From Bacteroidota bacterium (GTDB lineage Bacteria; Bacteroidota; Bacteroidia; Bacteroidales; JAADJA01), in contig JAHLKX010000011.1 of NCBI GenBank assembly GCA_020444515.1, forward strand, positions 28,862-92,861: a DNA stretch of 64,000 nt, in the 5' to 3' direction. Below the pieces are notes generated by a model. The model saw only the letters and a program-made list of their open reading frames with translations. It did not search any database and was not told the origin of the DNA. This document shows positions 50,181 to 64,000 of this stretch, in pieces (positions within the stretch are counted from its first letter, which is position 1; each line of letters starts with the position of its first letter). The position numbers and the translations under genes are program-made.

Positions 50181-53100
50181 TTAGTGAATAAATACTTTCT
50201 TCGAAATTACATCCGCTTTAGTCCTCAACTTTACAATAACAAAGCCATTTACATTTGGTAGGGCTATTGTTTGGTTGGTACTTTTCAGATTGGAACTTTT
50301 ATGGATCAATCGCCCAGAATAATCGAATATTTCCGCTGATTGAATGGCAGTGCCATACGAAATTATTTGAATACTGCCCTGGTTAGCAAACACATGTATG
50401 GTTTCATCTGTTTCAACAGAATGTTGTTCGGGCTCAAAGAGGGTTAACCTGAATCGCAATCCATCAGCCTCATCAGAATAAAACTGGTAAACAGTATCTT
50501 CTGAGAGTTTTACAATGATATCTTTCTGAATATCCTCTATAAAGAGATCAGTTCCATAATCAAATCCGCTGAATTGTTTGAGCTGCAATGCATAAGATCC
50601 CGAGGCATGGATCCTGACCCCCAGGTTCACCGGAGATGCAATAGCAGCTTCAGGCAATGAGTTCAATGCCATTGGTGTTCAATCATCTGTTATGGAATAA
50701 AGTTGCGGAACCTCTTTCGAGAACAACTTCAATGCATCCAGATGTCCATCGTATTGCAAGCCGGCTCCCTGCTTAAACCGGATGACCGTTTCATCCTGAA
50801 TTCCTTCCGTAAGAACGGATAAACGAATGATCTGAGCAGACGAAGAGGTGTTTTTATAAAATGGGAAATGGTTGTGGTCCCTCACATTGTTATCCATTTC
50901 CAGCACACCATTTTGATGGGCATGTACAAAAAATCCCTGCATGGGTTGAATAACACTTTTACCGTTGTTCACTCCAATGCCGGGTTCAGTGCCATCTGTG
51001 CCGACATAATAGTGATAATTTCCACCACCACCATCTCCAACACCTTCCCAAAAATAAAGGGTATTATCGATGGATGACTTATTCCAGCCAACCGCATTCC
51101 AGTCAATAGATGATGGATAAGGATTTCCTACCAGATTCCATCCCTGGTTGATTTCCCCAGATTGCCTGGTTACCGGAAGCGCCATGTTCCCGTTATTCAA
51201 TATCCCTGAAAAGTTAATGAGGGTATGGCCGGCAGAAGCCCAGGCCGCATACCCTTTCATGGGAAGGATGGGTTCGGAAATCGAGGTAATATAGGGACTC
51301 CAGGCATCAGCTGACTCATTATATGTTCTGAGATACAAATCTTCGAAAACTATTGCATGGGCATCCTGTATCGGGCTGGCGACATAATGCCACTTATCAT
51401 TTGAAATATATAAATTTACACTGGCTGGCACATTATCCGAATGGTGAATGAGGGATCCGGACCCTTCTGGTGAACTTTCAATCAACAAACCGGATGTTCC
51501 TGCTTCATTCATTAATTCTCCAAAAACAGTGAGATCATTGTTGGAAGGGATAACCAAATGGGCACCGGATTCTATTCGAAGATTATTGCAAACAGCTTTT
51601 TCACCACTATTCGCTTCAGGGAAAAAAGGGTCTGAAAGATTGGCTGGAATAACAACATCCGAAACGATTGTAGGCAGGAAACCAATTTCCCAGTTCTCAC
51701 GTTCATTCCAGTCATTGGATACATTACCCAACCACCGGTTTGAAGCAGTCTTTTCCAATTTGAAGCCTCCCATGGCGAATCCCATTTCACCGGGAAAATT
51801 ATTGTCCCATCGTACTGCTATGCTAATCATTCCATCTTCACCAGGCTGTATATTTGTCCATTTTGCTACATAACCATTCACCGTGTTGTATCCGGTACTG
51901 AATGAAACTTCGTTTTCACCATAAACCACCACACCCTTACTGCTTATATTTTTGTAGGAGAGGGCATTATCAAGTCTCACCCGGGTAAAGCAACTTTCAT
52001 CGAGGAGGGGATCGTCATGATTTGCGGTCAATGTCAAAGTATAGAAGGCGTGAGGATCAAGGTTATCAAATTGAAGTATCAATTCATCTGTCGGATTGTC
52101 CAATGGTATCGAATGGCTGAGATCCACAATTATTTCTCCACTTGCACCAAAAACCATTGCTGCATCCGTTCCCGGATTGGTTTGTCCACCTGAATTTTCA
52201 ATCCATGAGAAAGATGTTGGGGTTTGATTCCCCGAAAACAGAACACCCGGCATATTTCCAAGCTGATAATCTATCAAACCCTGCGCAGAGCCATCATAAC
52301 CAACTTCAGTCACAAAGGGTGCATTGTTAGATAAAAGGCCTGGAGAAAGGTCATTAAAAGCCACCCAATCGGAATACAAAACGGCAGGAGAATATGAATT
52401 TCGGGCCACATAATTGCCATTAAAACAATCATGAGGGCTGGACCAAATACCTTTGCTATATCCCAGTCCCAGATCCTCTTCATCGGTATAATAACCGGGT
52501 GCAGAAAAAGGAGCATATAATGCGCTGGCTGATTCCCTTCTGATAATCCCCTCTCTAAAATCGTTGGTGCCAAGAGTATTTCTGATCACCTCCTGTCGGG
52601 GCCATGGCGCACCATCAAAAAAAGAATCACCAGTCAGGATTTCACCAGAAGGTACAGTGCCATCATGACGACCATACAACAAGTAATCCATGTGAACACC
52701 ATTGATCCGCAATTCAACGGATATGGCTTGTTCTAAAACGCCCCCTTCATTGGTTGGAAAATCCAGTGTAGTTTCCAGATCATAATAATTACCATTATAA
52801 GCTTTAACGCCTGATTCGGCAATCAAGAAAAAGCGATGGGGTTCAATCACCATTCCGGGCGAATTTTCTTCAAGTTGCCAGTAAATTTCTGTCATCCCAT
52901 CCTGATTGGCATCTGTACGCACAATAATTTGAAGGTTATCAATGGCAATGGATTCGTCAGTAGGATTGAACAGCTCGATGAATTCCCCCGGGCTTTGTCC
53001 AACCGGATCATCCCAACTTTGAAATCCAGCAATGATCACATTTCCGGTATTGTCGCATCGGTGACCAAACCAACAATCGACTGTTTGTTGTAATCGTTTT

Positions 53101-53981
53101 GCATCTTCAGGCGATGTCAACCATAAATTATTGAGGCCAAGGGTCGGTTTGTTGAATATATAAGAATACAACACCAGGGCATTCAGGTAACGGCCCGTAT
53201 AGTTTTGATGTTTGTTATCGACAGAATACAGATATAAGGGATTTTCTTCTGTCTGGTGATATTGCCAAATATCTCCGATGGGTGCTACCGATATATCATT
53301 GGAGGGGACATACGTCGCATGGTTCGGTACATAATTTTCTGCACAGTCAAAGTAGTGGTAGTGCAACTGCGATAAAAAATCCTCGGGATCTTCAAAGGCA
53401 TATGGGCTATAGTAACCATGGTCTTCCTGGAAAGCCCAGGTTTCAAAAAGAACAATATGGGCACCGGGACTGGTTGCTTTGATCCTGTCATAAAACCAGG
53501 TCACATCTTCCTTAAATTCAAGAGGATCACCGATCTCTGTTGGTTTTATGCTGTATTCCTGCATAACTACATAATCCCAGTTGCCAGCATCTACCAAATC
53601 CAGGCAAGCCTGGTCCTGACGGTAATAGCTAAGTTCACGTCCTCCTTCGACCCGCGCACCAATGTCCGGATCAGGCCATCCAGCATCATTTGCGAAAAAA
53701 TCGACAATTGTCGGAGCATCCGCAGTAAAGCTGTTTCCGATGAAAAGAATCCGCAATCCATCCAAATTAATTGCATATGAACCCTCCGGTTCTGATGATG
53801 GTGGTGATTCTGATAAATTCAATGTCGAATCTGGAACAACCTTATTGGATAATGGATTGGTAAATAATGAAGGGGTAAATCCTGTAAAAAACGCAAAAAA
53901 AACTAACAAGGACAGATTAATTTTACTCCATACAAGCCTTCTCACGCCACTTGCAGGCAAAATTGTAGTTTGGTTTTTCAT
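50181..53981 (-). pseudogene. T9SS-secreted multidomain protein (SGNH/DUF4886-like hydrolase, lamin-tail-like domain, type A CTD) interrupted by one in-frame TGA at 50679-50681
   Basis: ORFs 50679..54035 and 50181..50672 are in the same frame (...YSITDD*TPMALNSLP...). Motifs: LRILFIGNSFT, WDYVVMQE, DNKH; GEFIELFNPT; WLGNVSNDW; GWNLVGNPYPS; CTD IFDYSGRLI...ISKKVFIH. Likely start is MKNQ at 53981. Confidence 0.8.
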
Positions 53982-54074
53982 GTGATCAATGATATTGGTT
54001 GGTAATAGGTTAGGATTAAGATCAGAGTTTATCACATCAATAACACTCCTAATCTCTCATCTCAATTTCATTAA

Positions 54075-54082
54075 CAAAATTA
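54075..54082 (-). promoter_or_regulatory. Bacteroidota sigmaA -7 element
   Basis: TAATTTTG on the minus strand upstream of the T9SS substrate gene. Confidence 0.4.
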
Positions 54083-54271
54083 ATGATTGTTTTAATTGTA
54101 TATAGAATTTTAACGTTTACTTATGAAAATAACGCAAATACAGCAGGCTAAATATTCAGAAAATACTAAATTTCAGCCATTTGCATTAAATATTCTCGCA
54201 AAAGAGAATATCCCATCAAATTAGAAAATTGATTATCTTGCACTAAGATTTTCCATTTTGACAAATATTTC

Positions 54272-54321
54272 TACTTTTGTGCTTTTAAGCAGACTTAAAT
54301 TTTTATTTACCCAAACTTAAA
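54272..54321 (+). promoter_or_regulatory. Promoter followed by tandem DtxR/MntR-type operator candidates
   Basis: TACTTTTG (54272-79); perfect palindrome TTTAAG-caga-CTTAAA (54284-99); degenerate copy TTTAcc-caaa-CTTAAA (54306-21), offset by 22 bp. Confidence 0.6.
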
Positions 54322-54326
54322 CTACC

Positions 54327-54530
54327 ATGAGCAAGAATATAAAAAGCCCTTGTATCCAGGTTTGCAAGTATGATAAAAACGGCATTTGCCAGGGATGTTA
54401 CCGATCTATGGAGGAGATCACCGGTTGGCTTTTTATGACAGATGAGCAAAAACAAAAAATATTGGAAAATGTAGCCAGGCGAAAAGCTCAAATCGAAACA
54501 GAACAAAATAACTACGATCATTACGTTTAG
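54327..54530 (+). CDS. DUF1289 family small Cys-rich protein
   Basis: IKSPCIQVC...GICQGCYRSMEEITGW. Confidence 0.88.
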   Translation: MSKNIKSPCIQVCKYDKNGICQGCYRSMEEITGWLFMTDEQKQKILENVARRKAQIETEQNNYDHYV

Positions 54531-54532
54531 GT

Positions 54533-55189
54533 ATGTCAGTTTCAACAGAGGATTTTCTGAAAGGAATTTATCAATTGAAGGTGGACCTTCATCAAAAGGC
54601 CAACAGCTCTAATCTTGCTGCTCGTTTGAATATCTCCCATGCTGCTGTTACCGACATGGCCCGTAAATTATCAGGAAAAGGATTGATCCTTTACCAAAAG
54701 TATAAGGAATTTATCTTAACTCCTGAAGGAGAAAAGCTAGCCCTTCAAGTGATACGCCACCACCGATTGTGGGAATTGTTTCTTTCAAAGGTGCTCAACT
54801 TTCCTTTGTCAGAAATCCACAATGAAGCAGAATTGTTGGAACACCAAACCAGTGACTTACTGGCCGAAAAACTGGATGAATATTTGGGCAGACCTGAATT
54901 TGATCCTCATGGTGATCCCATTCCTGACAGGGAAGGTAAAATGCCACCAAACAATCACATCCTCCTCACGGATGCCCCTCCGGGAAAAACCTTCGAGATT
55001 GCACGCATCCACTATTCGGATCAGGATATGGTTGAATTTTTCACGAGCAATAACATCACCCTCGGACAAAAGATTTTAATTGAACAGGTGTTCAATAAAG
55101 GCGAAACAATGGCGCTCCGCATCGGTAGTAAGCCCTTTGTTTTAACCAGAACAATTACCCAAAATATTTACCTTAATAACATTACCTGA
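54533..55189 (+). CDS. mntR: DtxR/MntR family metal-dependent repressor with FeoA-like domain
   Basis: [45 protein letters not shown]. Confidence 0.9.
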
Positions 55190-55190
55190 T

Positions 55191-56009
55191 ATGATAGATT
55201 ATGATTTATCAGCCCTGATCGTTGCATTTGCTCTGACCCTCTTTGCTGGTTTATCGACAGGCATTGGTAGCGCGATCGCATTTTTTGCCAAACAAACCAA
55301 TACCAAGTTCCTGGCGATGTCTTTGGGTTTCAGTGCCGGGGTAATGATCTATGTTTCATTTGTTGAAATTATCGTTAAAGCCCGCGACGAACTGATCACA
55401 GAGTTGGGAGTCCGAGGAGGTCATTGGACCACCGTTGCCGCTTTCTTCGGTGGTATTCTGTTTATCGCCATCATTGACAAGTTGGTGCCCTCTGCAGAAA
55501 ATCCTCATGAAATCAGGATGGTGGAAGAAATGGATAACGACCCTGCGAAAAAAAATCGCAAACTTATGCGAATGGGTACCTTCACAGCTCTGGCCATCGC
55601 CATTCACAATTTCCCTGAGGGTTTGGCTACATTTACGGCTGCGCTCACAGAACCCAGCCTGGGGATTGCCATTGCAGTAGCCATTGCCATCCACAACATT
55701 CCTGAAGGTATTGCAGTGTCTGTACCTGTTTACTATGCGACCGGAAACAAGAAAAAAGCATTTACTTTATCATTTCTCTCGGGACTGGCAGAGCCGGTAG
55801 GTGCATTGATTGGATACCTGATCCTGCTCCCTTTTATGAGTCCGGTGGTGTTCGGCGTATTATTTGCCGGTGTGGCTGGTATTATGGTTTTTATTTCACT
55901 GGATGAACTGTTGCCATCAGCCCGGGAGTATGGAGAACATCATCTTTCTATTTATGGATTGATGGCTGGCATGGTGGTTATGGCAATTAGTTTACTTTTG
56001 TTTATCTAA
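55191..56009 (+). CDS. zupT: ZIP family divalent metal transporter ZupT
   Basis: [48 protein letters not shown]. Confidence 0.95.
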
Positions 56010-56019
56010 AACTGATCGA

Positions 56020-56808
56020 ATGAAACGAATTATCACAATCCTTTTCTTTCTGGTTATTTTGATAATCCCCAGCATTGCTCAAACGGATACGATACCCACC
56101 ATCAGCACCGACCGACCAACACAAACCACTTCACCCTATTTTATCCCCAAGGGGGCCTTCCAAATCGAGACAGGTGTGATTTACACCCGACGGACCGACG
56201 ACTTTGATGAAAGGCAAATGATGAGCATTGGTAACAGCAATTTGCGTTATGGCGTATTTGAAAACTTCGAGGTGAATGTGATGGGCAGTTTCGAATCAAT
56301 GACGATCAATCCCAAAGAAAAAGGGAACGACTCTACGCTATCAGGTTTAGGTGGCGTTTCGGCCGGTTTCAAAACTTTTGTTTGTAAAGAAAAAGGAATA
56401 CGACCGGCTCTTGCAATCGTTGGAATCATTGCCCTCAGACATCTCGGAAATGAAAATTTTGCGCCAACATTCTCTTATCCGCTTGGCAAACTGGCTGCAA
56501 CACATACGCTGAGTAACCGGGCATCATTGGGTTACAACATCGGGTTTTCATATAGCGGAGAAGATGCAGATGGATTTTTCATCTATTCGGTTTACATGGG
56601 TTATTACATCACATCAAAACTTTGGTCATTCATCGAAGGATATGGAAATTTTGACAATGGCAATTTTCCCAATCACAGGGCTGACTTGGGGTTAACATAT
56701 TTGATCAGTCCCACTTTTCAACTGGATATATCCGGTGGAACCGGCTTTTCCAATGATGTTGACCGATCCTTTATTAGTGCAGGACTCTCATGGAGAGTTA
56801 ATAAATAA
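56020..56808 (+). CDS. Outer-membrane beta-barrel, Phenol_MetA_deg-like 'transporter' family
   Basis: Signal peptide, ISTDRPTQT, FQIETG, LRYG, terminal beta-strand ISAGLSWR. Confidence 0.8.
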   Translation: MKRIITILFFLVILIIPSIAQTDTIPTISTDRPTQTTSPYFIPKGAFQIETGVIYTRRTDDFDERQMMSIGNSNLRYGVFENFEVNVMGSFESMTINPKEKGNDSTLSGLGGVSAGFKTFVCKEKGIRPALAIVGIIALRHLGNENFAPTFSYPLGKLAATHTLSNRASLGYNIGFSYSGEDADGFFIYSVYMGYYITSKLWSFIEGYGNFDNGNFPNHRADLGLTYLISPTFQLDISGGTGFSNDVDRSFISAGLSWRVNK

Positions 56809-56815
56809 TCAGTCA

Positions 56816-57634
56816 ATGCACAGAAAAAAACAAATATTATTGTTTCTATTAAGTTTATTTGCTTTTTCAGGATTTACCCAGAACCAATCTTTCGTAAATG
56901 TTGCCCCGAGTTGGGCTGTAGAACCACTGGTAACCGATCGTCCCGACCAAACCGAATCATCTGTTACCGTTCCACGAAAAAGTTTGCAAATTGAAACCGG
57001 ATTTATTTACGAGCATTATGCAGAGGATCAGTATGTGCTTGAAAATATGGCATTGGGAACGACCCTGTTGCGATATGGTGTTCTGGAAAACTTTGAATTG
57101 CGGCTTGGATCAAGTTACCAGATCAACACTTTAAAACCTGCCTCCGGCACAGCCGACACTACCCAACAGGGAATAGCCCCCATCTCGGTTGGAATAAAAG
57201 TATACATCGTTCAGGAAAAAGGAATTTGGCCGGAACTTTCTCTTTTGGCCGATTTTACGCTGAACCAGTTGACAGCACTCGATTTTCGGCCAACCTACAA
57301 TTATTCCACCATCCAGTTGGCAGCCTCACATACCCTCAGTGACCGGTTTGGGCTGGGTTACAACCTTGGTTATGCCTATAACGGTGAAGACCCAAAGGGT
57401 TATTTCCTCTATTCGCTAGTCCTGGGGATCAGCGTATCAGAAAGGATCGGTGCTTTTGTGGAAAGTTATGGGAACTTTGATCCCGGAGCCATTCCGCGAC
57501 ACCGGTTTGATGCAGGATTCACCTACCTGATCAGTCAAAATATTCAAGTAGATATTTCAGGGGGTTTCGGACCCAAGGACACGGTCTCCATGGGATTTGT
57601 TTCAATGGGTTTGAGTTGGCGTTTCCCCGAATAA
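56816..57634 (+). CDS. Outer-membrane beta-barrel, paralog of the upstream gene
   Basis: Start MHRKKQILLF at 56816; LVTDRPDQTES, LQIETG, LLRYG, VSMGLSWRF. Confidence 0.8.
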   Translation: MHRKKQILLFLLSLFAFSGFTQNQSFVNVAPSWAVEPLVTDRPDQTESSVTVPRKSLQIETGFIYEHYAEDQYVLENMALGTTLLRYGVLENFELRLGSSYQINTLKPASGTADTTQQGIAPISVGIKVYIVQEKGIWPELSLLADFTLNQLTALDFRPTYNYSTIQLAASHTLSDRFGLGYNLGYAYNGEDPKGYFLYSLVLGISVSERIGAFVESYGNFDPGAIPRHRFDAGFTYLISQNIQVDISGGFGPKDTVSMGFVSMGLSWRFPE

Positions 57635-57635
57635 C

Positions 57636-58805
57636 CTATTCATCCAGATTTTTGAGTAGCTCTGATTTTAAATAGTACACGCCATCCATAGCAATCATAG
57701 CATTTTCGGGCAATGTTTGATCCGGAACTACATGGACAAATCCATCTTCAGTAAACCCTGTTTTTACATTAAATTTTTGAAAAGTCACGGAAGGTCCATT
57801 CACATCATCAGTTGTGTAAAAGCCATAGGTATCATCATCATTATCGATGATGATGGCTGTTTCGGGCAATGCTTCCAGCATTTGCTCACTGGTGTGGATC
57901 TTTGAAGAAACAAACATCCCGGGAATTAAATCCAGTCCCCTGGTTTTTACCGTTGCCAAAACATTGATCACCCTTCCTTCTGAGTCAACAGTGGATCCTA
58001 CATTGTCAATAAATGCTTCATTTTCTTCCGAATCATCTCCGGAAATACTAAAGGTAACACGCTGGCCCTTTTTAACCAGCGGAATATCTTTTTCAAAAAC
58101 TTTGACCTGGAGCATAAGATCAGACAGGTTTACCAATTCGAACAAGGGATGCTGCATATCAGCAAACATGCCAATGTTGGCATATATTTTATCCACGACA
58201 CCTGAAATGGGACTGATGATATTGATATAAGATACAATTTCTCCATTTTCAAGCTTTTCAATATTCACATTCAATAGCTCCAGTTCAGCTTCCGCTGCCT
58301 GAAGTGCTGAAACTGAGCGATTGTATTCGGCTTCCATGGCTTCAAATTCTTTTTCGGATTTGATATTCTGACCAATTAGTTTTTGTTGCCGTTCATATTC
58401 TTTTTTCATCAAAGCAAAATGGCTTTTTGTGTCCAGGTAGTTTTGCTGAATGCTGATAAAATCAGGATGGCTATAGGTAGCCAAAACCTGTCCTTTTCTT
58501 ACGGGCTCACCCGGTACCACATTGATGGTGCGAATAACCCCTCCGATCATCACCGAAACCGAAGCTTTGTTCTGGGGCGGAATAATTACCTGTCCACGAG
58601 CACTGACATCGTATGATAATAACTGGGGTGTAATTTTCCCGAAATAAATCCCGGCCCGCTCGATTTTGTCCTGGGTCAGTGTAATTCCCCCTTTGGTTTG
58701 TTCGACAGCTGTTTCATCGTTAACCACTTCAGGTTGTTGCTGGCAGGATATAAATCCCCATGCAAGGGCAACAATTATAGAGGTTTTTAAGATTGTCATT
58801 TTCAT
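57636..58805 (-). CDS. czcB: RND efflux periplasmic adaptor (CzcB/CusB-like), lipoprotein
   Basis: FISC lipobox, GEPVRKGQVL, ISPISGVV, VFEKDI, LIPGMFV, GVYYL. Confidence 0.9.
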   Translation of the reverse strand: MKMTILKTSIIVALAWGFISCQQQPEVVNDETAVEQTKGGITLTQDKIERAGIYFGKITPQLLSYDVSARGQVIIPPQNKASVSVMIGGVIRTINVVPGEPVRKGQVLATYSHPDFISIQQNYLDTKSHFALMKKEYERQQKLIGQNIKSEKEFEAMEAEYNRSVSALQAAEAELELLNVNIEKLENGEIVSYINIISPISGVVDKIYANIGMFADMQHPLFELVNLSDLMLQVKVFEKDIPLVKKGQRVTFSISGDDSEENEAFIDNVGSTVDSEGRVINVLATVKTRGLDLIPGMFVSSKIHTSEQMLEALPETAIIIDNDDDTYGFYTTDDVNGPSVTFQKFNVKTGFTEDGFVHVVPDQTLPENAMIAMDGVYYLKSELLKNLDE

Positions 58806-58816
58806 ATCTGGTAAAT

Positions 58817-61800
58817 TTACTGTGCTATTAAATATTCAATTTCAATGATGGCTGTATTGTATCTTTCAAGGATATCCAGGTATCGCAGTTTAATATCAAA
58901 AGCAATAGCAGTGTACCTCGCATAGTCAAGGTAGTTGATATCTCCTGACTGGTAACTCACCACCAGGTTCTCAATCAAAGTATTGGCTTTCTCCAGGGCA
59001 CCTTCTTCATAATATGCCAGTGATGCACGATAGCTATCGAGGGCTGTAAATTGTTTCTCAAGCTTATTCCGAAGACTCTGTTTTTCATATTCAAAAGAGT
59101 TTTCAGCCATTTGCATATCAATTTTTGTAGCCTGTACTTTTCCTGAATTTGACCAAAACCACAATGGAAGCGTAGCTCCAACCTGAAATCCTTCAAAACC
59201 ATTTGTCCTGTCAATCGACTGGTTAAAATAACCCACAAAGAAATCAGGCAGGTGCATCATTTTCTGTCTGTTAAAGCTGCGCCGTTGCAATTCCGCCAAT
59301 TGCCATATATACTGGGTTACCACATTGCTGGTGTCATTGATAGAATCTTTCAAAATCAGTGGTGCTGTGAACTTTAGCGCTCCTTCGACAGGTACAATTT
59401 TTTCTTCAATACCCAATAGTTGCAATAAATTCTGTTGTTCCGATACCAGTTCCGCATCAGCTTCCATGAGTTGCGTCTTTATTTTTAACGATTCTGATCC
59501 TGATAGCACCGAGGCGAGTTGATTGATATCCCCCGTTTCGTATTGCAAATCCGTGGCAGCCCTGAATCGATCATAAATGCTATCCATCTCCAGGAAAATC
59601 AAATACTTTTGATACCGCATTGTCCATCGCGAATAGGTACTTTTTACTTCTTTAAGCAGGTTTTGCTGCACCATATGGAACTGATTTTCCTTTAACCTTT
59701 CCAATTCACGGTAGTACTTAACCTGAGAAGTATAAACCGTTGGAAAACTAAAGGGTTGTCTCACCGACCAGTAATGGTCCCGCAAATCTGAATTGATCTG
59801 GCCGTCCTGGTATTCCAGTTCAGCAGGAGGCAGATTAAAACCGCTCTTTTTTAGTTTTTGCGCAGCTTCAATTTCAAGTGTTGCATTTTGAATATTCACA
59901 TTGTTTTCCTGAGCGATGGCAATCGCTTCATCCAGCGACAATATCCTTGTTTGATCCTGAGCCTGCAGTGAATAACCTGAAAACAGCATAAACAGCGCAA
60001 TTACTGTAACCGGTAGTTTTTTAGATTTTCGCATATGGAGTCCTTTATTGAACATGACATAAATCACGGGCAAAATCACCAGGGTCAGAAAAGTAGAGGT
60101 TACCAATCCACCAATCACAACCGTTGCCAATGGCTTCTGGACTTCGGCACCGGGAGCGGATGACAGGGCCATGGGGAAAAAGCCCAGAGCAGCAACGGAA
60201 GCCGTCATTATGACTGGTCGCAACCGGAGTCGTGTTCCTTTCTTCACCCGTTCCATGATATCATCGACACCCTCATCTCTCAATTGATTATAATAGGATA
60301 TTAACACGATTCCATTGAGCACGGCCACCCCGAAAAGTGCAATAAATCCAACCCCTGCTGAAATACTAAAGGGCATTCCGCGAAGGTATAAAGCCCAAAT
60401 CCCTCCTACAGCAGCCAGAGGAATGGCCGTAAAGATCATGATGGATTGCCGTAAAGAATAAAAAGCAAAATAGAGCAACACGAGGATGGTAGCGAGTGCA
60501 ATTGGCACTGCAATGCTGGAGGTACGACGGGCATCCTGCAGGTTTTCAAACTGCCCCCCATAGGTAATGTAATATCCGGGAGGAATGATCAGTTGGGCAG
60601 TCAGTTTTTCATTCACTTCATTCACAAAGGATTCTACATCCCGGTTACGAACATTGATACCAATGGTAATCCGACGTTTGGTATTATCCCTGGAGATTTG
60701 CATGGGGCCCTGCTGGATCGAAATGTCAGCCACCTGACTCAGGGTGATCAATTCACCGGTGGGAGGATTGATGCGCAGGTTTTGTACACTCTTGAACTCA
60801 TTGCGGCAGGTTTCACACAAGCGCACCACCAAGTCGAAACGCTTTTCTCCTTCAAATATGACCCCAGCCGACTCACCAGCATAAGCCATTTTAATAATTC
60901 GATTGATATCGTTGATATTGAGACCGTATTGTGCCAGTTTATCACGCTTGTAATTGATCACCAGCTGCGGCAATCCAACAATCTGCTCTACCTTGACATC
61001 ACCAGCACCTTCAACTTCCTGAATAATAGCAGCTGCTTCATTGGCTTTACTGTACAATTGATCCAGATCCTCACCATAAATCTTTACGGCTACATCCGCC
61101 TTTACTCCAGTCATCAGCTCATTGAATCGCAATTGGATAGGCTGCTGAAATTCAAAAGAGAGTCCGGGCAGTACTGAAAGTTTTTCCTTCATTTTTTCCA
61201 CGAGTTCCTCACGTGTTTTTGCCGAGGTCCATTCTTCCTTTTCTTTCAGGATGATCATGATATCGGCATCCTCAATGGCCATAGGATCGGTAGGCACCTC
61301 CGCCGTACCGATCTTGGATACGACTTCAACCACCTCCGGAAAATTATCCAACAGGATCTTTTCTGCTTTGGTGGAAGAGGCAATGCTTTCGGTCAATGAA
61401 GAACCTGGTGCGAGGGTCATCTGGGCAGCGAGGTCACCTTCTTCCAGGGTTGGAATAAATTCACCCCCCATCCTTGCAAATGCTAAAAAGCTGATCACTA
61501 AGATCAGCAAGGTCAAACTGATCATCATGATCCGGTACTTTAAGGCAAAGTTTAAAACGGGCGAATGAGAACGCTGTAGAAATGCAACAATGCGATCGGA
61601 AAATGTAGTTTTATTCACCACCTTTTTGCTCAGTGCCAAGGAGGCCATCATTGGGACATAGGTTAATGATAAGATCAGTGCTCCCAATAAGGCAAAACTA
61701 ACTGTCTGAGCCATGGGCTTAAAGGTCTTGCCTTCAATTCCGGTAAAAGCCAGGATAGGGATGTATACAATGAGGATGATCAATACCCCAAAAACGGCCG

Positions 61801-63139
61801 ACCGACTGACTTTTTTCCCCGCAATCAGTATTTGAGAATCCAACTGTTGCTGAGTAAGCCGCTTAAGACCTGTATTACGGTGTAATTGATGGATGATCCC
61901 CTCAACAACAATGACCGATCCATCCACAATTAATCCAAAGTCGATGGCGCCCAGGCTCATTAGATTTGCAGAAACACCAAACAGGTTCATCATTGAAAAA
62001 GCAAACAACATGGAGAGCGGAATCACGGAAGCTACAATCAAACCAGCCCGGTAATTACCCAGTAGCAAAACCAGGACGAAGATAACGATAAGCCCGCCTT
62101 CGATCAGATTTTTGGAAACGGTATTGATGGTCTTTTTGATCAGCCTGGCACGATCCAGGTAAGCATGAACCTTTAATCCTTCAGGAAGGATTTTACGCAA
62201 TTCATCCATCCGTGACTTTACTTCTTTGATAACCTGGGCGGTATTGGCCCCTTTCAGCATGAGGGTGATGCCACCAACAGCTTCCCCTTTACCGTCCTTG
62301 GTCATAGCACCATAGCGCGGTGGGGAGGATATTTTGACTTCGGCTACATCACTAATGAGGATGGGTATTCCATTGATATTTTTAACGACAATATTTTCAA
62401 TATCATGGTTGTCTTTGATCATTCCTTCAGCCCTGATGTAATATGCACCCGGACCTTTTTCGATATAGCTGCCACCCGAATTCTGATTGTTTGCTTCCAG
62501 GGCATCAAAAACTTCCAGGATGGTGATATCCATGGCCACCAGTGTTCTTGGATTGATTGAAACCTCATATTGCTTGAGAAATCCGCCAAAACTGCTGATC
62601 TCTACAATTCCGGGAATTCCCGAAAGGTAGCGTTTAATGATCCAGTCCTGAATGGTGCGTATGGTCATTGGATCATATACATTCTCATAACCCGGTTCCG
62701 GTTCAATCACATATTGGTAAATCTCTCCAAGGCCCGTTGTTATAGGCATCATTTCAGGTTTTCCATAACCATCAGGAATGTCGTTCTCTGCAATTTTTAT
62801 TTGCTCACTTACCAGTTGCCGGGCAAGATAAGGACTTACCTTATCCTTAAAAACAACTGTAACCACCGATAATCCTGAGCGGGAAATCGACCGGATCTCT
62901 GTCACATCCTGAATATTGGCCATGGTCATTTCAATAGGAAATGTAATGAATTGCTCAACTTCCTGTGGCGCCAGTGAAGGTGAAACCGTAATTATTTGAA
63001 CCTGGTTATTGGTAATATCAGGAACCGCATCAATCGGGAGAATGGTAAAATTATACACTCCCCAGGCAACCAGGGCCAGGGTAAGTAATCCGATGATCAA
63101 TCGGTTTTTTACCGAAAAATCGATGATCTTTTCAATCAT
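58817..63139 (-). CDS. czcA: CzcA/CusA heavy-metal RND efflux pump with fused C-terminal TolC/CzcC-like domain
   Basis: LPIDAVPDITNNQVQ, GAIDFGLIVDG, GFIALFGVAVLNG, RLRPVIMTA, AEVQKPLATVVIGG; ~400-aa outer-membrane-factor tail (LSLDEAIAIA...). Confidence 0.95.
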   Translation of the reverse strand: MIEKIIDFSVKNRLIIGLLTLALVAWGVYNFTILPIDAVPDITNNQVQIITVSPSLAPQEVEQFITFPIEMTMANIQDVTEIRSISRSGLSVVTVVFKDKVSPYLARQLVSEQIKIAENDIPDGYGKPEMMPITTGLGEIYQYVIEPEPGYENVYDPMTIRTIQDWIIKRYLSGIPGIVEISSFGGFLKQYEVSINPRTLVAMDITILEVFDALEANNQNSGGSYIEKGPGAYYIRAEGMIKDNHDIENIVVKNINGIPILISDVAEVKISSPPRYGAMTKDGKGEAVGGITLMLKGANTAQVIKEVKSRMDELRKILPEGLKVHAYLDRARLIKKTINTVSKNLIEGGLIVIFVLVLLLGNYRAGLIVASVIPLSMLFAFSMMNLFGVSANLMSLGAIDFGLIVDGSVIVVEGIIHQLHRNTGLKRLTQQQLDSQILIAGKKVSRSAVFGVLIILIVYIPILAFTGIEGKTFKPMAQTVSFALLGALILSLTYVPMMASLALSKKVVNKTTFSDRIVAFLQRSHSPVLNFALKYRIMMISLTLLILVISFLAFARMGGEFIPTLEEGDLAAQMTLAPGSSLTESIASSTKAEKILLDNFPEVVEVVSKIGTAEVPTDPMAIEDADIMIILKEKEEWTSAKTREELVEKMKEKLSVLPGLSFEFQQPIQLRFNELMTGVKADVAVKIYGEDLDQLYSKANEAAAIIQEVEGAGDVKVEQIVGLPQLVINYKRDKLAQYGLNINDINRIIKMAYAGESAGVIFEGEKRFDLVVRLCETCRNEFKSVQNLRINPPTGELITLSQVADISIQQGPMQISRDNTKRRITIGINVRNRDVESFVNEVNEKLTAQLIIPPGYYITYGGQFENLQDARRTSSIAVPIALATILVLLYFAFYSLRQSIMIFTAIPLAAVGGIWALYLRGMPFSISAGVGFIALFGVAVLNGIVLISYYNQLRDEGVDDIMERVKKGTRLRLRPVIMTASVAALGFFPMALSSAPGAEVQKPLATVVIGGLVTSTFLTLVILPVIYVMFNKGLHMRKSKKLPVTVIALFMLFSGYSLQAQDQTRILSLDEAIAIAQENNVNIQNATLEIEAAQKLKKSGFNLPPAELEYQDGQINSDLRDHYWSVRQPFSFPTVYTSQVKYYRELERLKENQFHMVQQNLLKEVKSTYSRWTMRYQKYLIFLEMDSIYDRFRAATDLQYETGDINQLASVLSGSESLKIKTQLMEADAELVSEQQNLLQLLGIEEKIVPVEGALKFTAPLILKDSINDTSNVVTQYIWQLAELQRRSFNRQKMMHLPDFFVGYFNQSIDRTNGFEGFQVGATLPLWFWSNSGKVQATKIDMQMAENSFEYEKQSLRNKLEKQFTALDSYRASLAYYEEGALEKANTLIENLVVSYQSGDINYLDYARYTAIAFDIKLRYLDILERYNTAIIEIEYLIAQ

Positions 63140-63218
63140 AACACATATAGTTTAAAACGATATAAAAGTACGAAATAAATAAGAGGCAGACACAACTACC
63201 CAAAACAGGAATGTCGTT

Positions 63219-63596
63219 CTAAACTAAAAGCGGTGGGCCACGGTTTACATGCCGCGATAAAATAAAAAGATAAGGGGGCGGAAATTCATGATCAGGCCGG
63301 GGGTATTTCTCCTGGCTGATGTGGGCAACAGAATCAAATTCAATAAATTGCAGGCTTGCATGATCAAAATAAACAATATCCTGATTTCCAGCATCCTTAA
63401 AATTCTCAAGGTGGTGATTTCCTAAATTAAATGAAAGAGATCTCGTTAAAACCTTGAAGATGTCAGTATCCAATTCATGGGTATCAAATGCAACCGCTGT
63501 ATTGGGATGACTGTGAACATGGGGTATAAAAGCGTGCATAAGGGTCAGAAAAAAAGCAAATAGAATCACTTTATATTTTTTTCTGAATCGGTTCAC
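63219..63596 (-). CDS. His-rich leader ORF with an N-terminal hydrophobic segment and a C-terminal RGPP motif
   Basis: GTG start; KKYKVILFAFFLTLMHAFIPHVHSH...LGNHHLENF...EFPPPY...HVNRGPPLLV*; ends 79 nt upstream of czcA. Confidence 0.75.
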   Translation of the reverse strand: MNRFRKKYKVILFAFFLTLMHAFIPHVHSHPNTAVAFDTHELDTDIFKVLTRSLSFNLGNHHLENFKDAGNQDIVYFDHASLQFIEFDSVAHISQEKYPRPDHEFPPPYLFILSRHVNRGPPLLV

Positions 63597-63638
63597 AGCC
63601 TGTTTGATTTGTGTTATTTATATCTGATCTGAATAATG

Positions 63639-63646
63639 TATCTTTG
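63639..63646 (+). promoter_or_regulatory. Bacteroidota sigmaA -7 element
   Basis: TATCTTTG upstream of the flavodoxin gene. Confidence 0.55.
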
Positions 63647-63695
63647 CAAACGCAAATAAAAGAAAAATGTTCATTCTATAAAAGATTAAGCTGAA

Positions 63696-64000
63696 ATGAA
63701 AAAAATAGGTTTGTTTTACGGAACAACATCAGGAAAAACAAAGAGAGTAGCCGAACAGATCAAAAAAGAATTTGGCGAGAAAACTGTGGATCTGTTTGAT
63801 ATCAAGCAGATTAAACCAGAAGATATCCTTAAATATGACAACCTCATTTTTGGCACCTCTGCCTGGGGTATTGTTGATATGCAGGATGATTGGGAGGTAT
63901 TCATTGATGATATGGTAGAACTTGACCTGAAGGGAAAAATCATTGCCTTATACGGCCTTGGCGACCAAAAAGAATATCCAGGCAGTTTTGCGGATGCTCT
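63696..64000 (+). CDS. fldA: Flavodoxin (long-chain type), 3' end outside the window
   Basis: Manual translation: MKKIGLFYGTTSGKTKRVAEQI...LIFGTSAWG...QDDW...IALYGLGDQKEYPGSFADA; absent from the ORF track. Confidence 0.92.
   Translation, partial: MKKIGLFYGTTSGKTKRVAEQIKKEFGEKTVDLFDIKQIKPEDILKYDNLIFGTSAWGIVDMQDDWEVFIDDMVELDLKGKIIALYGLGDQKEYPGSFADA

Follow-up and report, generated by a model that had tools for sequence, protein, structure and literature searches.

The small open reading frame ahead of the heavy-metal efflux gene czcA in a 64,000-nucleotide stretch of Bacteroidota DNA (hereafter the window) is best explained as a cis-acting, CutF-like arrest leader, which gates the pump by a stall-to-ON logic and probably responds to metal, a reading that we consider somewhat likelier to be right than wrong. 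The parts of this reading differ in strength, such that the leader very probably acts as a cis translational gate on czcA and the gate is probably dependent on stalling, while for its tuning by metal the balance tilts slightly in favour. The arrest-leader reading put forward in the original prediction is well supported because the terminal motif, the histidines and their spacing are conserved and a stem lies at the position that a ribosome arrested at RGPP would open, but the RNA element had been misidentified, and CutF (where the stall opens a stem and the pump is ON) is a closer model than the originally proposed CruR (where metal relieves the stall and Rho terminates).

In the proposed mechanism the ribosome would stall at RGPP during the membrane insertion of the His-rich chain, presumably coupled to Sec/SRP, and the stalled ribosome would melt a predicted 13-bp stem hiding the czcA initiation region, so that a longer stall would turn the pump ON. 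A divalent metal bound to conserved His and Glu residues could then slow the pulling and prolong the stall, the order of metals considered being Zn first, then Co, Ni, Cd or Mn. The coordinates of all features are collected in the Table.

Table. Features of the leader, the spacer and the neighbouring genes (positions in the window)
Feature	Position	Strand	Basis
RND periplasmic adaptor (CzcB-like), 389 aa	57636..58805	-	domain matches
CusA/CzcA heavy-metal RND permease fused to TolC-like outer-membrane efflux domain, 1440 aa	58817..63139	-	TIGR00914
Gating stem, 3' arm (czcA -21..-9, contains A-12, A-13, A-14)	63148..63160	-	folding; PMC6847099
Inner hairpin, -6.8 kcal/mol, interrupted U-rich tail; weak terminator-like	63184..63201	-	folding
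Originally predicted hairpin; unpopulated in free RNA, minor alternative once a ribosome blocks the 5' arm	63192..63217	-	folding
Gating stem, 5' arm (last codons, stop and 5 nt)	63214..63226	-	folding
Leader ORF, 125 aa, GTG start	63219..63596	-	no Pfam/NCBIfam match; distant DUF6769 kin
RGPP, residues 119-122; predicted stall with Pro121 in P site, Pro122 in A site	63231..63242	-	register: PMC12992588
LGNHHLE, residues 58-64; H62 and E64 candidate metal ligands	63405..63425	-	homolog conservation
H21-x3-P-H26-x-H28-x-H30 cluster, candidate metal ligands	63507..63536	-	homolog conservation
Hydrophobic segment, residues 10-24	63525..63569	-	Kyte-Doolittle; AlphaFold helix 3-23
TTTGCAAA core common to query, L051 and L052	63639..63654	.	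sequence comparison
Divergent flavodoxin gene, continues beyond window end	63696..64000	+	domain match

The leader and its family

The co-oriented ORF upstream of czcA is present as originally described, and its 11 histidines (residues 21, 26, 28, 30, 40, 61, 62, 79, 92, 103 and 116), the PPP run at residue 106 and the RGPP motif three codons before the TAG stop are all at the places given for them; a spacer of 79 nt separates it from czcA, both genes lying on the minus strand. The N-terminus is basic and then hydrophobic, the claimed hydrophobic segment being found from residue 10 with a mean Kyte-Doolittle value of 2.49 across 15 residues. Since the invariant His21 lies at the end of this segment, the latter is likely an uncleaved signal anchor. 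The leader contains no Cys, and its GTG start is also kept in two relatives (L051 and P0003). RNA-library contigs, which can show neither strand nor level, lie over the leader (X1 63086-63582 and X3 63282-63624, both of one study), and one of them runs 54 nt into czcA; the part of czcA at 62000-63085 is mostly uncovered in four RNA runs, which says nothing on attenuation.

A profile built from 13 sequences retrieved 834 homolog clusters at E<=0.001, forming a Bacteroidota family; a single-sequence search found only two relatives. In a class-wide search 56 of 401 genomes gave a match, a tally that counts the unpublished G846, a genome used for no other result. That the ORF and its motif arose by chance, a notion to which the lack of a Pfam or NCBIfam family lends some colour, is of negligible probability and is refuted by the conservation of the leader across the 834 clusters and of its start in the two relatives, and by the RNA contigs over it. 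The leader is a real, conserved gene.

The check proposed with the original prediction, namely conservation of HxHxH, LGxxHLE, the terminal R[AG]PP and their spacing, came out largely in its favour. Among the best 150 of the 834 homologs H21, H26 and H28 are conserved at 100%, 99% and 100%, against a mean column identity of about 21%, and within GxxHLE the values are 88% for G59, 87% for H62, 91% for L63 and 92% for E64, while CxxC occurs in 4 of the 150. The terminal motifs in the same 150 are RGPP (97), RAPP (32), RGSP (9), RPPP (7), KGSP (1), RSPP (1) and none (3), a count that is circular, as the profile had included the motif. Less circular is the count at 21 loci whose scored match excluded the motif, where 18 leaders end in R[AG]PP, two in RSPP or RGSP and one is unresolved, with the proviso that the initial look by the search tool may still have favoured the motif; a profile of the N-terminus only gave 16 matches, mostly seeds and near copies, and is no independent motif test. 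The distance from HLE to the Arg is 53-67 residues in the homologs (5th to 95th percentile) and 51-63 in nine loci selected by czcA. A point against the preferred reading is that the residue preceding the Arg is Asn in the query, as in 5 of 147 homologs, and is Leu in 71 and Phe in 27 of them.

A second count that is less circular starts from the pump, with 91 czcA loci chosen for an identity of at least 52% in the first 120 aa, three rows from outside Bacteroidota being excluded. Within the 0.6-1.5 kb examined at each, the HMM finds a His-type leader at 16, another 22 carry one of Cys type and 50 have neither, three being too short; among the 50, L031 (10.7 bits) has a weak His-type leader. 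Ten of the 17 His-type leaders found in this way end in R[AG]PP, three in RGSP, RPPP or KGSP, and four are motif-less. The last (L075, L076, L077 and L079) are close homologs forming one clade and keep the His motifs; their termini read KGLHP, KGIHP or KSPLP in place of R[AG]PP. Both these motif-less leaders and the 50 leaderless loci weigh against the arrest-leader reading.

These four homologs, with their His and without the arrest motif, together with the conserved His cluster behind a membrane anchor, are what would be expected if the protein were stable, sat anchored in the membrane and helped the pump in trans by binding periplasmic metal, with RGPP and stem being secondary. This we judge very unlikely, because the AlphaFold model of the leader (pTM 0.40) has only two helices with no folded domain past them, 139 of 147 homologs have the motif 1-5 residues ahead of the stop, the gene heads the operon and its short spacer is conserved, and the leader is missing from half of the related pumps. 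The same model shows no folded metal site, which counts against the preferred reading.

As to named families, the query does not match PF20558 (DUF6769) at the Pfam gathering score, and 8 of 137 members of the leader family match it weakly (best E 8.3e-6); the atlas clusters of the family are unnamed or 14% DUF6769. Membership of DUF2946 was considered and rejected, PF11162 being matched neither by the query nor by any of the 137 aligned proteins (E<=0.01), and the CxxC/CxxxC of DUF2946 is absent from the Cys-free query.

The predicted gating stem and other spacer structures

Folding of the spacer predicts a stem of 13 bp, including one G-U pair, with pair probabilities of 0.82-1.0, the 5' arm of which occupies +10 to +22 when counting starts at the first nucleotide of the Pro121 codon. 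The duplex energy is -17.9 kcal/mol, a value reached in none of 2000 shuffles and by 2 of 150 ordinary gene pairs of the genome. When a ribosome at RGPP is modelled as RNA blocked to +15 from the Pro121 codon, the stem is lost and the opening cost of czcA -22..+3 drops by 6.8 kcal/mol; the unpaired probability rises from 0.0 to 0.65 at A-13 and to 0.88 at A-14, and only to 0.15 at A-12. Speaking against the gate, the czcA AUG is under this model mostly paired still, in a weaker alternative fold, with an opening cost of about 8.5 kcal/mol. According to PMC6847099, A-12 and A-13 stimulate initiation in F. johnsoniae, Bacteroidota being a phylum without Shine-Dalgarno use, and AUG is scarcer than expected near Bacteroidota starts. 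An out-of-frame, four-codon ATG..TGA (ATG TGT TAT GAT TGA, 63149-63135 on the minus strand) overlaps the czcA start, and is also found in L051.

The sequence of the hairpin that had originally been offered as the switch (63217-63192) is present, but it is not the working element, having -5.2 kcal/mol alone and a probability of 0.0 in the context of the free RNA, with outer pairs of at most 0.34 when the ribosome is modelled. Under the modelled ribosome these outer pairs partly compete with the inner, terminator-like hairpin 63201-63184 (0.98 -> 0.65-0.80), which would be in keeping with a CruR-like attenuation, whereby the 79-nt spacer would hold a terminator, intrinsic or dependent on Rho, that is governed by the position of the ribosome at RGPP; likewise, a loose terminator pattern is found in 19 of 71 His-type spacers vs 63 of 505 ordinary pairs, a count that compares across genomes and to which the gating stem itself can contribute by satisfying the pattern. 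Attenuation is nevertheless quite unlikely, given that the hairpin is weak and its U tail broken, that the pairing conserved in the family falls on the initiation region, and that the CruR logic of metal turning expression OFF fits importers and not an exporter.

Recurrence of the stem among relatives

Pairing between the end of the leader and the initiation region was compared across the family. In our test the segment +3..+30 (from Pro1) was paired against -35..+3 of the next gene, with p<=0.05 against shuffles taken as a pass. In a first set of 32 His-type loci with spacers <=130 nt, 12 pass. Each of three controls with shifted windows gives 2 of 32, and of 150 ordinary gene pairs drawn from the 505 of this genome 13 pass; pairing is -7.12 for native vs -4.61 for cross-locus combinations. 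As the windows had been picked after viewing part of this set, the test was repeated unchanged on later-fetched loci, 39 in number (47 minus one misassigned motif, three near-duplicates, three long spacers and one motif-less locus). Of these 15 pass, vs 4, 4 and 3 of 39 in the positional controls, and native pairing is -8.67 vs -5.90 across loci (permutation p 5e-5, overstated as are the other p values since the loci are related and not independent).

When all 71 loci are taken together, the initiation region pairs at no more than 0.10 with sequence ahead of the motif and most strongly, at 0.37-0.46, with +9 to +15 from Pro1, the peak on the side of the next gene being at -24..-12. The opening cost falls by at least 2 kcal/mol in 14 of 32 first-set and 16 of 39 held-out loci vs 14 of 120 ordinary pairs. 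The sequences of the arms vary among loci, and between L142 and L143 both arms differ with the pairing kept. Against the gate, about 60% of the family loci fail the pairing test, and the closest homolog (L051, ending in RGSP) and L054 lack the stem, their opening costs changing by a drop of -0.2 and -0.1; at 14 loci where the leader lies >130 nt from the next gene no pairing signal was found (p 0.37).

The pump and its genomic surroundings

The czcA product scores 1178 bits against TIGR00914 (cut-off 701), and the nearest solved structure is that of ZneA (E 4.6e-207 vs 1.8e-178 for CusA). The pump has the transmembrane motif DFG..DG..E, which we take to be typical of divalent-cation pumps, and at the columns of what are presumably the zinc ligands of ZneA (E136, D602, E610, D654 and D658) it carries E139, D618, D626, L670 and E674.

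Upstream, the TTTGCAAA core likely represents overlapping promoters of the leader and the divergent flavodoxin gene, a reading that assumes the Bacteroidota -7 consensus; a sigma-70 scan, whose model is unsuited to Bacteroidota, found one site vs 4.3 expected. In L051 flavodoxin, promoter core, leader and czcA are all kept. In L052 (czcA identity 89-90%) flavodoxin and core are kept and the leader is absent (L052:800-1510), the czcA start lying about 120 nt from that of flavodoxin. Because L052 has the pump without the leader, the latter is dispensable for possession of the pump, and the arrangement, which provides a natural control lacking the leader, is as would be expected of a removable cis cassette.

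The claim that no regulator is adjacent holds for two-component, MerR and ArsR genes, none of which was found among the scanned ORFs of 52000-64000 (nine proteins), but it had overlooked a gene for a metal-dependent regulator of the DtxR/MntR type 2.4 kb from the czcB end. This gene and zupT (399 bits, cut-off 252) lie on the opposite strand, 1.6-2.4 kb away, within a convergent operon (54327-57634, plus strand) of DUF1289, the DtxR/MntR-type regulator, zupT and two PF13557 proteins, a metal-import counterpart opposite the efflux operon. Elsewhere in the genome there are three Fur-family genes.

Such regulators bear on a further explanation, in which the same stem serves without metal sensing, by plain translational coupling or as a SecM/MifM-like insertion monitor, with RGPP merely lengthening the dwell and metal control being transcriptional, through a Fur-family or DtxR/MntR protein. 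In our model a terminating ribosome opens the gating stem equally to one at RGPP, such that the stem alone needs no stall, and many orthologous pumps are without leader (50 of the 91 czcA loci). We nonetheless consider this explanation unlikely, since five His/Glu residues are 87-100% conserved and the linker is not, the HLE-to-R spacing is narrow, and CzcA-type pumps or RND partners are encoded downstream at most loci, czcA itself being the next gene in 37 of 46 further loci. Outside this pattern, at L136, L138, L139, L141 and L202 the leader family stands ahead of a His-containing small membrane protein and not a pump; an 80-aa piece of this protein gave no Pfam match.

Rarity of the arrest motif in the genome

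Among the 2,467 ORFs of at least 250 aa in this genome (1,322,844 aa) RGPP and RAPP do not occur, vs composition-based expectations of 5.5 and 4.6. Since AGPP and AAPP are likewise low in the same ORFs (2 and 2 observed vs 9.2 and 7.8 expected), the absence is partly due to a depletion of PP. Five of the 17,285 six-frame ORFs of 50-250 aa have an R[AG]PP terminus, and three of the five, among them the query, are hydrophobic at the N-terminus and are followed after 79-115 nt by a long co-oriented gene. Two ORFs outside the window, G000:C9:25159-25560 (-) and G000:C4:738987-739352 (+), have a hydrophobic N-terminus and a RAPP or RGPP end; the former is His/Cys-rich, has a weak stem (p 0.044) and is followed by a gene for a 750-aa protein, TonB-dependent receptor-like in appearance, and the latter is without stem (p 0.95).

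Relation to known systems

According to PMC12992588, RAPP-type motifs arrest with their third codon in the P site and the fourth in the A site; RGPP supports arrest with its two prolines at these sites, and gives the most robust arrest in several contexts. The register of CruR/Bp2923 was established there by toeprint. The query has the hallmark of these arrest peptides, in that it is small and putatively exported and its conserved RAPP/RGPP stands close to the C-terminal end, and it resembles the proteins of Fujiwara et al. in small size, putative export signal and position of RGPP. PMC9973294 defines CutF-like proteins as having <150 aa, a signal peptide, PP in the last 15 residues and a co-oriented gene within 1000 nt, with which the size of the query, the position of RGPP and the 79 nt to the next gene agree; 40% of such proteins come from Bacteroidota after normalising, and ACR_tran is among the neighbours. 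A stem of the CutF type, masking the initiation site of the next gene and close enough for a stalled ribosome to act on it, is found computationally.

CutF of Rhodobacter capsulatus itself follows the same stall-opens-stem logic with copper, according to PMC9973294 and bioRxiv 10.1101/2025.02.05.636593, and shares with the query a small leader (exported in CutF, putatively so in the query), a proline-rich C-terminus, metal ligands (candidates in the query) in the part to be exported, a stem over the initiation site of the next gene and a detoxifying gene downstream. Unlike CutF, the query has His/Glu in place of CxxxC, no DUF2946 similarity and an anchor that is likely uncleaved, and its stem hides an A-rich initiation region, whereas that of CutF hides a Shine-Dalgarno site. 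The CutF-like clusters with His only (14 and 17) precede HupE/UreJ genes, while the query precedes an RND pump. CruR/Bp2923 (DUF2946; PMC9426467) is likewise a uORF in which a metal motif and an arrest site of the RAPP type stand at a constrained spacing, but uses CxxC and copper to turn an importer OFF via Rho across a 162-nt spacer, as opposed to His, an exporter and a 79-nt spacer with a translation-blocking stem in the query. DUF6769 also comprises small His-rich Bacteroidota proteins with a RAPP end ahead of RND genes, the query subfamily differing in that it has GxxHLE and is poor in Cys. CzcI of Cupriavidus metallidurans, as described in PMC9973294, is again a small gene heading a czc RND operon and a suggested metal-sensing regulator, reportedly without the C-terminal proline motif.

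The novelty implied by the original prediction is reduced, inasmuch as the family is already tabulated in the source data of PMC12992588. In its accessible parts CusA/CzcA is an enriched downstream group, one of the 30 of Fig. 4B (50 RAPP vs 7 AAPP), and about 30 leaders before CusA/CzcA pumps are listed, most of them His-rich and including Bacteroidota members of the present family; one of the latter, the ORF on contig JAIOZL010000041.1, is our locus L053. The main text mentions CusA or CzcA zero times, and a test of these leaders or an analysis of His motifs or spacer RNA was not found in the parts covered. Our literature search, short on subscription journals, found no study of Bacteroidota czcA leaders or their stem. 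The concept and the gene lists are thus in print, and the gain would be a specific mechanism for a class already tabulated, not a new kind of system. The metal-sensing arrest leaders tested so far, CruR and CutF, concern copper and come from Proteobacteria; if correct, the mechanism would widen the class to divalent metals other than copper, to efflux systems and to a phylum ignoring Shine-Dalgarno sites, would specify the RNA gate, and would provide a function for DUF6769-like and DUF6660 proteins.

Cys-type leaders in the same position

The 22 Cys-type leaders upstream of czcA (L011, L014, L017, L018, L020-L025, L027, L028, L030, L032, L034, L036, L040, L041, L044, L047, L081 and L082) show the pattern CSPFCxC..WxPP, most ending in WxPP, and the one checked is DUF6660. 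They show the gate more strongly than the His-type leaders, as 14 of 17 such loci pass the pairing test vs 2 of 17 in each control, in a single set with no held-out repeat, and 12 of 17 lose at least 2 kcal/mol with the modelled ribosome. WxPP may be a natural arrest motif, in which case it would lie outside the RAPP class. By extension, and as a tentative proposal that we rate at somewhat below even, an arrest switch free of Shine-Dalgarno sites could operate phylum-wide on the zinc-type RND pumps of Bacteroidota, in which a His/Glu nascent sensor would respond to periplasmic divalent metal and the stalled ribosome would unmask the A-rich initiation element at -12/-13, two unrelated families, His/RGPP and Cys/WxPP (DUF6660), using the same gate.

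In a quick-method czcA tree of 83 rows, leader presence changes about 12 times; with only five Cys-type rows long enough and L011 mislabelled, this tree is too weak for claims of His/Cys swaps. By eye, the close czcA relatives L003, L057-L061 and L071 are preceded by a ferritin-like-looking ORF, and L055 and L064 have an AraC-like-looking ORF ahead of czcA.
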